The notes under the pieces are model-generated. The model worked only from the letters and a program-made list of their open reading frames with translations. It was not told the origin of the DNA and ran no database searches. Positions 21,096 to 36,970 of a stretch of DNA of 64,000 bases are shown here, one piece after another (within the stretch, counting starts at the first letter, position 1; each line of letters begins with the position of its first letter). The position numbers and the translations under genes are program-made. Location of the stretch: contig JAHPZE010000002.1 in the NCBI GenBank assembly GCA_019058365.1, positions 224,001 to 288,000 on the forward strand, in the 5' to 3' direction. Source of the DNA: Promethearchaeota archaeon. GTDB taxonomy: Archaea; Asgardarchaeota; Lokiarchaeia; Sigyniarchaeales; SOKP01.

Positions 21096-21167
21096 GCGCC
21101 GCTAGTCTAGGGGTTATGATTCCGGCCTTCCAAGCCGGTGACCCGGGTTCAATTCCCGGGCGGCGCA
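21096..21167 (+). tRNA. tRNA-Gly(TCC), intronless
   Basis: Full cloverleaf: GCGCCGC/GCGGCGC acceptor, CCGGC-CTTCCAA-GCCGG, CCGGG-TTCAATT-CCCGG. Confidence 0.97.
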
Positions 21168-23364: not shown

Positions 23365-23477
23365 AGGAATCATATGAAAAAACTTTATATGATATTTTTT
23401 CCTTTTTAAATTACGAATTTTGATATTTTAAAAACTTAAATGTTTTATAAAATAAAAATTCTCAATATAACCAAAGA

Positions 23478-23668
23478 GCCAAGGTGGCGTAGTAGAACTC
23501 CTAATTAGGGAGTCTGCGAACCCCGGGAACGCACTAGAATCATCAGAATTACTGATAATGGTGAAACTGAAGATCTAGGTATCGAGCAGAATGAGCTCCT
23601 CGTTCATTCTCGAGAAAGTTCAAAGGGATTCGCCTTGAACGGATTCCGGAATAATCTCTCCCTTGGCA
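23478..23668 (+). tRNA. tRNA-Phe(GAA) with four BHB introns (about 23494-23520, 23538-23565, 23587-23616, 23624-23653)
   Basis: GCCAAGG/CCTTGGC-A acceptor. After removing the four inserts: D-stem GCGT/ACGC, anticodon arm CTAGA-CTGAAGA-TCTAG, T arm GAGAG-TTCAAAT-CTCTC. Confidence 0.85.
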
Positions 23669-23992
23669 ATTATCCTAATTCTCATCAATAATATAAATCA
23701 TTCAAATTTCTTATAGAAATAGTTCAATTTTCCCCTTAATTCATAATTCTTAAAATTTAAAAATGTTTGATATAGTTCTAAGGTTGTAGGGATTCTTTTC
23801 TATTTTTCATTGAATTTTTCAATAAAATCATGCACTTTTTGATGTTTTATATTACTAACAGATATGATGCTGTTGGTTGGAGGAGTGCGCAGATGAACTC
23901 TTTTGAGAGTTAGATACTTAAAGATATTGAAAGAGAGGGTTAAGAACTAAATATTTTAAAAAAATAAAACAAAAAAGGCAAAAAAATAGACT

Positions 23993-25108
23993 TTAAGATT
24001 TCTTCAATTTTTTACTTAAAATGATTACTACAACGGATAGAATGCCAAACAGAACGAATAGATTATATCCAGGAATTATTCCATCGTCTTGATTATAAAT
24101 ACAATCTCCATTATCACTAAATGTGTTTCCTTCACAATCAATCTCTATGAAGCATCCATCATTTTCTTGCAAGATGTTTCCCGAAATTATATTATCATCA
24201 CTATTTTTTAAATATATCCCGAATTGAGAATTGTTGAATACGTTGTTTTCCTTAATGTCGTTCCAATTGCTGCCTTCTAAATATATTCCGTTAGTGCCAT
24301 CATAGCTTATACTATTTTCTGTAATTTTATTTCTATGACTATCTACTAAATTTATTCCATTAACGGTATTAAAGCTTATAGCATTTCCCGAAAGGAAGTT
24401 ATTAAAACCATATACATATATCCCACTAACCCCGTTATTACTTGCGTTGTTTCCTGAAATGAAGTTGCTATTACCTCCACAACTTATCCCATCAAGCATG
24501 TTGTTATTTGCTGTATTTCCTGAAATTATGTTATTATTACTTACTATAATTCCTATCCCAAACCGGTAATTCATGTCTGCTGTATTTCTCGCAATGATAT
24601 TATGATAACATCCCGATAAATATATTCCATAATAAGTCAACGAACAATTATTCATGATTATCAGAGAATTGTTTACATTTGATAATTTAATTCCAGCTTT
24701 ATATTCTCCTGGCGGAAATTGGGATATCGCATTGTAGAGGGTACAATTTTCAATCGTAAAATAAACATTTGAATTTTCAATCCAGATACAATTTTCTCCA
24801 TTTTTTGAACCTCCACCATCTATTATCAAATCTTCTATCACGTAAGGGTCGGAATGTGTGCCCGACCCCGAACAATTTCCATCATTTTTAAAATCAACCC
24901 AACCAGAATTACCATCTATATAAATTGGTTTTGATACTTGTGAGGTTTTCAAATTTTCTTTATTAAAAGAAATATCATCACTATATTCCGAATATGGAAA
25001 GCTATTTCCCGCATCAAGAATGAGATTAGTGTTATTTATAGTTGAAAGGATGAAAACAATTCCTATGGTGATTAAAATAATAATTTTTGATTTTGCATTT
25101 GATTTCAT
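23993..25108 (-). CDS. Secreted parallel beta-helix (NosD/PbH1) protein with Loki-CTERM-like anchor
   Basis: Paralog of 1242..2450: CSGSGTHSDPYVIEDLIIDGGG, GIYL..S..N.I..N repeats, IPGYNLF-TM-KKLKKS. Confidence 0.85.
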   Translation of the reverse strand: MKSNAKSKIIILITIGIVFILSTINNTNLILDAGNSFPYSEYSDDISFNKENLKTSQVSKPIYIDGNSGWVDFKNDGNCSGSGTHSDPYVIEDLIIDGGGSKNGENCIWIENSNVYFTIENCTLYNAISQFPPGEYKAGIKLSNVNNSLIIMNNCSLTYYGIYLSGCYHNIIARNTADMNYRFGIGIIVSNNNIISGNTANNNMLDGISCGGNSNFISGNNASNNGVSGIYVYGFNNFLSGNAISFNTVNGINLVDSHRNKITENSISYDGTNGIYLEGSNWNDIKENNVFNNSQFGIYLKNSDDNIISGNILQENDGCFIEIDCEGNTFSDNGDCIYNQDDGIIPGYNLFVLFGILSVVVIILSKKLKKS

Positions 25109-25499
25109 ACTATTTTCCCATACAAGTTAAATATAATTTGTAGCAATTAATAATTAGGTTAATTTTCTTTATATACATTTCAATCTACAACAGAAAGAAT
25201 ACCAAGCAGAAGGAAGAGATTAGATCCCCGCTTTCTTTCTATAATTCAGTTCACTTATTTCGGAATCATCTTCTTTCTTACTTTTCTTCCACATGTCCTA
25301 CAAATCTGGGTTGCTTTAAATACCCCATAAATCCAACCCTCAAATCAAAGTATAAGAAAAACCCCTAGTGTATTCTTACCATTTTTTAACTTGCATATGT
25401 TTTTCTCAAGTTTATTTTATATACAACAAAAAACACATTTGCTCATACTCTCTAATAAATATTTAATAAAGACTCTTAATTTAAATGCTTAGATTCAAA

Positions 25500-36015: not shown

Positions 36016-36119
36016 TGGGCCAGGCAGGATTCGAACCTGCGACCTTGGGTTTAATGGATACATCCATTAAAAATCCCAGTCCGAAGCCGGGCACCCTATC
36101 CAGGCTAGATTACAGGCCC
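36016..36119 (-). tRNA. tRNA-Arg(TCG) with a ~29-nt intron in the variable loop (45/46; 36044-36072)
   Basis: GGGCCTG..CCCGG-CTTCGGA-CTGGG, insert hairpin tttaatggat/atccattaaa, GCAGG-TTCGAAT-CCTGC. Confidence 0.9.
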
Positions 36120-36860: not shown

Positions 36861-36970
36861 GCGGCTATAGTGTAGCCCGGTCTTTAAGTATAACAAATCT
36901 GTCTACTTAACCGAAAGCATTCGGGACTGTCACTCCTGCGACGCGGGTTCAAATCCCGCTAGCCGCGCCA
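36861..36970 (+). tRNA. tRNA-Asp(GTC) with a 32-nt D-loop intron (20b/21; 36884-36915) and encoded CCA
   Basis: GCGGCTA/TAGCCGC-G-CCA, CGGGA-CTGTCAC-TCCTG, BHB with central helix CGGT/ACCG. Confidence 0.93.

Follow-up and report, generated by a model that had tools for sequence, protein, structure and literature searches.

A tRNA-Phe(GAA) gene of a Lokiarchaeon is probably interrupted by four non-canonical bulge-helix-bulge introns

Is a 191-nt locus that common annotation tools pass over a working tRNA-Phe(GAA) gene and, if so, how would the four short inserts that interrupt it be removed? The locus lies in a stretch of 64,000 nucleotides, referred to here as the window, from a Promethearchaeota archaeon whose genome assembly comprises 4.74 Mb in 54 contigs (29.5% GC) and is a metagenome-type draft with an estimated contamination of 6.6%. 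When the four inserts are taken out, ARAGORN calls the remaining sequence tRNA-Phe(GAA), with a perfect 7-bp acceptor stem, the 7-nt anticodon loop CTGAAGA, the T-loop TTCAAAT and an A as discriminator. The unspliced locus, by contrast, gave no ARAGORN match, the only gene seen by that program in the window being a tRNA-Gly (21096-21167). Similarly, the Rfam tRNA model did not match the locus at its gathering threshold, its matches in the window being the same tRNA-Gly and a gene at 36016-36119 (-), and the locus was absent from the hits of a whole-genome Rfam tRNA search (E<=1). The suspicion voiced in the original prediction, that standard tools may miss the gene, thus proved justified for both programs. 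We consider it probable (approximately 0.88) that the locus is a functional tRNA-Phe(GAA) gene, single in its genome, from which a splicing endonuclease would remove four inserts, all at non-canonical positions, as initially proposed. The decisive evidence for this reading is comparative, and comes from orthologues that have the same exons and other sets of inserts.

The coordinates of the exons, of the introns and of a putative promoter are collected in Table 1. The TATA-box-like motif TTTTATAAAAT is found at an equal distance upstream of tRNA-Phe in relatives, which is consistent with a role as the archaeal promoter of the gene. Other kinds of interrupted gene were discarded. Group I and group II introns do not fit inserts of only 28-30 nt, and no Rfam intron match was present in the window; neither does a split or permuted tRNA, given that the exons are collinear within a single 191-nt locus.

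Table 1. Features of the tRNA-Phe(GAA) locus, in positions of the window.
Feature	Position	Strand	Description
TATA-box-like TTTTATAAAAT	23443..23453	+	35 to 25 nt 5' of the mature 5' end; putative archaeal promoter
tRNA-Phe(GAA) gene	23478..23668	+	191 nt: five exons (74 nt in total) and four introns; CCA not encoded
Exon 1, tRNA positions 1-15	23478..23492	+	Acceptor 5' strand, U8, D-stem 5' strand, A14, G15
Intron 1, 29 nt, 15/16 (D-loop)	23493..23521	+	Relaxed BHB; central helix G.A, C:G, G:C, U.G; inner hairpin 3+4 bp
Intron 1, alternative strict-BHB reading, 27 nt, 16/17	23494..23520	+	Central helix 4/4
Exon 2, tRNA positions 16-30	23522..23537	+	
Intron 2, 28 nt, 30/31 (anticodon stem)	23538..23565	+	CACU/GGUG 4/4; inner hairpin 2+5 bp; outer helix 1 bp
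Exon 3, tRNA positions 31-51	23566..23586	+	Anticodon loop CUGAAGA, anticodon-stem 3' strand, variable loop, T-stem start
Intron 3, 30 nt, 51/52 (T-stem)	23587..23616	+	Relaxed BHB; central helix 3/4, outer A.G mismatch; inner hairpin 9 bp
Exon 4, tRNA positions 52-58	23617..23623	+	7-nt micro-exon AGTTCAA
Intron 4, 30 nt, 58/59 (T-loop)	23624..23653	+	Relaxed BHB; central helix 3/4, outer G.A mismatch; inner hairpin 8 bp
Exon 5, tRNA positions 59-73	23654..23668	+	T-loop end, T-stem 3' strand, acceptor 3' strand, discriminator A73

Orthologues were collected by BLAST of the locus against 40 relatives together with an exact-pattern scan (exon 3) of a species-representative collection, which yielded about 90 Asgard tRNA-Phe loci. 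The orthologous loci are deposited as Promethearchaeota or Promethearchaeia archaeon, and two genus mates with closed chromosomes, CP070805.1 and CP070831.1, are described as Lokiarchaeota (PMC10833476). Across the approximately 90 loci the tRNA-Phe exons are near invariant and the inserts vary in number and in site, about six sites being used: 15/16 and ~19/20 in the D-loop, ~21-23, 30/31 in the anticodon stem, 51-53 in the T-stem and 58-60 in the T-loop. An intron-aware model search recovered 51 unique orthologous genes with no insert (n = 3), one (14), two (18), three (11) or four inserts (4), and further four-insert genes were recognized by eye among the unmodelled loci (e.g., L002, L009, L012, L032, L056, L112 and L115). 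As in other multi-intron Asgard tRNA genes, at least two inserts occupy non-canonical positions and are missing from compact orthologues.

The 74-nt spliced product is identical in six orthologues with different insert sets, while two to four differences separate it from the intron-free orthologues, all of them paired compensatory changes in stems. Since the spliced form is called by ARAGORN and the same product is obtained from differently interrupted orthologues, we assign the locus to tRNA-Phe(GAA). Against the Rfam tRNA model the intron-free orthologues reach 65 bits; the three-insert orthologues are missed by it.

We then considered the inserts themselves. The bulge-helix-bulge (BHB) geometry applied here consists of a 4-bp central helix and 3-nt bulges, with cleavage after the second bulge base, and this rule was validated on intron 3, whose product is unambiguous: only the cut that leaves two bulge bases on one side and one on the other (2/1) yields a T-stem that pairs. 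Cuts at shifted positions were rejected for both intron 3 and intron 4, as the T-stem would be unable to pair; for intron 3 this applies even to a register one base away in which the helix is a perfect 4/4. The statement that each insert is bounded by a BHB was borne out for intron 2, with all four central pairs formed, but has to be softened elsewhere, because two or three of the four motifs are relaxed and have only 3/4 central pairs (the third being intron 1 when placed at 15/16). In particular, the helices ATCG/CGAG of intron 3 and GTTC/GGAA of intron 4, both initially presented as complete, each contain one mismatch, A.G and G.A, respectively. Introns with a 3/4 central helix and a long inner hairpin constitute the relaxed BHB class. 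For each 3/4 helix of the gene, a complete 4/4 helix in the same register was found in some relatives, namely in L002, L003, L012, L121 and L124 for 51/52 and in L005, L095 and L127 for 58/59. The 30/31 introns of the orthologues have a 4/4 central helix in all 33 unique sequences.

The inner hairpins covary among orthologues. Compensatory double changes affect 8 of the 11 pairs in the hairpin of intron 2, where 92% of cells are paired in 23 orthologous 28-nt introns, as well as 6/11 pairs in intron 1 and 6/13 in intron 3. In intron 4, 94% of cells are paired and changes are single-sided only, this hairpin being too conserved for double changes. Taken together, the exact presence or absence of inserts in orthologues, the conserved exons and the covarying hairpins place the inserts beyond chance. 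Thermodynamic folding of the free RNA does not favor the BHB conformations; in RNAfold predictions for the precursor and all partly spliced forms, the pair probability of the central helix was, whatever the context, approximately 0 for introns 1, 2 and 4. Judged by their motifs and by the cloverleaf that their removal leaves, all four inserts are classified as predicted archaeal EndA-dependent (BHB) tRNA introns. Gene structure, exon conservation, exact insert presence and absence and hairpin covariation are established directly, as are the enzyme genes described below. A genome-wide BLAST with the four introns as queries returned zero paralogous copies, and therefore there is no sign of recent intragenomic transposition.

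The boundary of intron 1 is the point on which a second reading of the gene has to be weighed. Originally, this intron was given as 27 nt at 16/17, with the caveat that the boundary might be off by about 2 nt, and the caveat turned out to be well placed: homology gives 29 nt at 15/16. The nearest relatives, L003 (flanks ~94% identical) and L031 (~91%), lack intron 1 and read GCGTAG–CCCGGGA, so that the insertion is exactly 29 nt long (23493-23521), lies between G15 and C16 and cannot slide. Because these close relatives carry a normal 9-nt D-loop and no sliding is possible, 15/16 is favored, and a 29-nt insertion at this site is most likely what intron 1 represents. In addition, all 12 unique introns at 15/16 in the orthologues are inserted between the same two bases, and with this placement four of them (L018, L045, L051 and L093) have proper bulges around a complete 4/4 helix.

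Alternatively, intron 1 could be cut at the strict BHB at 16/17 (27 nt, 23494-23520), the gene and the mechanism being otherwise the same, a placement that we regard as unlikely without being far-fetched. This register offers a complete central helix (CGUA/UGCG, 4/4) with flanking helices on both sides, the outer one of 2 bp, and proper 3-nt bulges, and has one base pair more than 15/16. However, comparison with the nearest relatives, whose alleles lack the intron, gives an insertion of exactly 29 nt, which speaks against it, every other insert in the tRNA-Phe gene family is precise, and the four relatives named above have their 4/4 helix with proper bulges only at 15/16. A 16/17 cut would also leave a two-base scar in the mature tRNA, since the junction would read GCGUAGU–CCCCGGGA in place of GCGUAG–CCCGGGA and the D-loop would become an odd 11-nt loop, AGUCCCCGGGA. 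Between G15 and G18 there would then be five bases, more than standard tRNA numbering allows for.

Ordered splicing had been proposed on the grounds that the outer helix of intron 4 forms fully only after removal of intron 3. The structural part of this proposal stands, as exon 4 is a micro-exon of 7 nt and intron 4 has its full outer helix only when exon 3 adjoins it, whereas a compulsory order does not follow from it. Introns 3 and 4 have no base in common in their cores, which comprise the central helix, the bulges and the inner hairpin, and relatives are seen with the intron 3 type but not the intron 4 type, and vice versa; thus, an order is possible but not required. In RNAfold, taking out intron 3 does no more than make the hairpin of intron 4 cleaner (from 0.54 to 0.96). 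More generally, closely spaced introns may need stepwise removal (PMC8450103).

Regarding the question of whether the genome holds a further tRNA-Phe gene, which the original prediction had also raised, Rfam, ARAGORN, an intron-aware scan and BLAST all failed to find one. Of the 33 Rfam tRNA hits in the genome, none is Phe, and BLAST of the locus against its own genome gave the self match only. Further, the intron-aware, acceptor-anchored scan of 3015 GC-rich candidate regions, which is blind to acceptor-stem introns and leaves about one third of the expected tRNA set unmodelled, produced no other ARAGORN-confirmed GAA model. The gene is therefore probably the only tRNA-Phe gene of the genome, a second and very divergent one being a slim prospect. 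Among the ARAGORN-confirmed models of this genome, most have no or one intron, two introns are found in four or five and three in one, and tRNA-Phe alone has four.

Several candidates that surfaced in these searches were set aside after inspection. A three-intron 'GAA' model (C39:266535-266721) and a four-intron 'Leu-CAA' model (C37:25364-25585) were not accepted by ARAGORN and resemble coding sequence. A 'Phe' reported by ARAGORN at C35:40289-40390 (-) was resolved by hand as tRNA-Thr(CGU) with an approximately 28-nt intron at 29/30 that contains the decoy TTGAAGA; in this gene, an intron-borne decoy anticodon loop misleads a standard tool.

The same searches bear on the possibility that the locus is a decaying pseudogene in which the inserts stay in, Phe being decoded by another, unfound tRNA gene. 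Some room for such a gene is left by the roughly one third of the expected tRNA set that is unmodelled in this 54-contig draft. Nevertheless, we deem a pseudogene very improbable: every other GAA candidate fell away when examined, closed genomes of the genus have their tRNA-Phe gene at this same locus, and the exons are perfectly conserved, with compensatory changes only, over dozens of species in which flanks have dropped to ~80% identity. Finally, an assembly or binning artefact, with the inserts as chimeric joins in a metagenome-type draft of 6.6% estimated contamination, is to all intents ruled out, because the same four inserts are found at 90% identity in the independently assembled closed chromosome CP070805.1 (L002/L052), where the flanks are only ~80-83% identical, and at least four further assemblies have three of them alongside the same neighboring genes; the soundness of the assembly at this locus, on which the original prediction depended, is hence upheld.

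A functional gene of this structure would depend on a splicing endonuclease that accepts relaxed motifs. Two EndA-family genes are encoded in the genome, each with the N-terminal and the C-terminal domain of EndA. One product, of 198 aa, matches the catalytic EndA subunit of Aeropyrum pernix (3p1z_B, E 1e-35) and retains Tyr, His and Lys; its SKPR is aligned to EKPR, which puts a Lys opposite K44 of the Crenarchaea-specific loop. The 206-aa paralogue has M. jannaschii EndA as its best match and carries Ser in place of the catalytic His, which fits a structural beta subunit. The subunit typing suggested originally thus points to the (alpha-beta)2 type. RtcB, an RNA ligase, is encoded as well. 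It has been reported that Asgard archaea possess an (alpha-beta)2 EndA with the Crenarchaea-specific loop and that the specificity-loop Lys is the determinant of the broad substrate range of EndA (PMC5829648). As far as protein sequence tells, the host therefore encodes a predicted two-subunit (alpha-beta)2 EndA with the broad-specificity loop expected for relaxed motifs, together with RtcB.

On this basis, a pathway can be proposed in which transcription, the cleavage sites, ligation and the order of events are the parts that we infer. Transcription from the TATA-box promoter would give a precursor of ~200 nt, in which each 28-30-nt insert would fold as a hairpin, and the foot of this hairpin would combine with neighboring exon bases into a strict or relaxed BHB. 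Both bulges would be cleaved by the heterotetrameric (alpha-beta)2 EndA, and the Crenarchaea-type loop that it carries, which in Aeropyrum gives tolerance of relaxed motifs at any position, may do the same here. RtcB would then ligate the five exons, including the 7-nt micro-exon, into the 74-nt tRNA, to which CCA would be added later.

Other tRNA genes of this genome also carry inserts. A hidden tRNA-Asp(GTC) at 36861-36967 (+) contains one 32-nt D-arm insert; its spliced model was confirmed by ARAGORN, and Rfam gave a partial sub-threshold match only (21.8 bits, C34:260905-260959). The 104-nt tRNA gene at 36016-36119 (-), with an Rfam score of 44 bits, has by eye an insert of ~30 nt 3' of the anticodon arm that is not at 37/38, and its anticodon loop, CTTCGGA, would make it a putative Arg-TCG. 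Outside the window, a three-insert tRNA gene is located at C34:25519-25694 (-), whose spliced form is Ile with anticodon TAT according to ARAGORN. Archaea normally read AUA with a modified CAU anticodon, and Ile-TAT is unusual. In Atabeyarchaeia-2, an Ile-TAT is tabulated as 'possible pseudo' (Valentin-Alvarado et al. 2024, PMC11291895).

The surroundings of the tRNA-Phe gene show two further features. An element of ~50 nt, …TTTATATGATATTTTTTCCTTTTTAAATTACGAATTTTGATATT…, at about 23377-23430 (+), that is, 50-100 nt upstream of the gene, is kept in many Lokiarchaeia, intron-free species included. It is single-copy in the genome, which rules it out as a repeated tRNA-promoter element, and it might serve as a leader or second promoter, or else form the 3' end of the gene that precedes it. 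Directly downstream, a segment of ~1.8 kb (23669-25447) holds a beta-helix/NosD-like ORF (23993-25108, -). As this segment is absent from the same position in L003 and L002 and present in L031, an indel adjoins the tRNA-Phe gene.

How unusual is a tRNA gene with four introns? The original prediction regarded four as exceptional, a view which the literature does not sustain. The limit of three introns per archaeal tRNA gene given in the tRNAscan-SE 2.0 paper (PMC8450103) is overtaken by later Asgard reports. In Supplementary Data 4 (Valentin-Alvarado et al. 2024, PMC11291895), the columns run to four introns, and four-intron genes are listed for Freyarchaeia and Atabeyarchaeia; Arg-TCT and Ile2-CAT of Freyarchaeia have four and the tRNA-Phe of Atabeyarchaeia has three. 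A preprint of October 2026 (Goswami et al., 10.64898/2026.10.13.758758) gives 2.2 intervening sequences per gene in three families, with up to five in one gene, and an average of ~0.9 inserts per gene in the non-focal Asgard families; it identifies D-arm inserts as those that annotators miss, and the name Lokiarchaeia is absent from its main text. Moreover, in the present comparison the four-intron tRNA-Phe recurs in many Lokiarchaeia.

The gene resembles the multi-intron tRNAs of Atabeyarchaeia and Freyarchaeia in that several inserts of ~20-30 nt are found per gene, at non-canonical positions (D-arm, anticodon stem and T-arm), and in that many such genes are missed by standard annotators. 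An (alpha-beta)2 EndA, predicted here too, is present in most genomes covered by the Asgard multi-intron surveys. It differs from them in its host, a Lokiarchaeon, and in that only tRNA-Phe reaches four introns among the genes modelled. Thermoproteales also have BHB introns at many non-canonical positions (Sugahara 2008; PMC8450103) and depend on an (alpha-beta)2 EndA with the Crenarchaea-specific loop. However, their maximum is three introns per gene (PMC8450103) compared with four in the present gene, they are thermophilic and GC-rich, whereas the genome studied here has 29.5% GC, and related intron families have been described in them, whereas the four introns have no paralogous copies in this genome. 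BHB introns in archaeal mRNAs, such as cbf5 of Crenarchaeota, would be processed by the same predicted enzyme but interrupt coding sequences. In summary, the four-intron tRNA-Phe is a good example of an already published Asgard phenomenon and involves no new mechanism.

A more tentative matter is how mobile these introns are. At the 15/16 site, at least two unrelated intron families, AATG…ACATACGYAA and TAGA…CTGCGAAA, occur in different species (L018, L045, L051 and L093 compared with L001, L002, L011, L013 and L067), and species with flanks as similar as 91-94% identity differ in which inserts are present. These patterns might indicate that the Lokiarchaeia tRNA-Phe locus is a hot spot at which BHB micro-introns of ~30 nt are still gained and lost at six or more sites, a reading that we offer as a doubtful one. 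If it is true, the tRNA-Phe family would be a natural series for studying how BHB introns arrive, a question left open by the preprint of Goswami et al. 2026.

With the gene described here, the extreme tRNA fragmentation of Freyarchaeia and Atabeyarchaeia now extends, at four introns per gene, to Lokiarchaeia. The latter is the class that contains the cultured Asgard strains. That an essential single-copy gene is missed by common tools bears on statements about genome completeness and codon usage made from metagenome-assembled genomes. Further, the orthologue series, with zero to four introns, identical spliced products and presence or absence of inserts at the species level, provides material for defining the rules by which EndA acts on relaxed motifs, and the same series can be used for studies of intron gain and loss.
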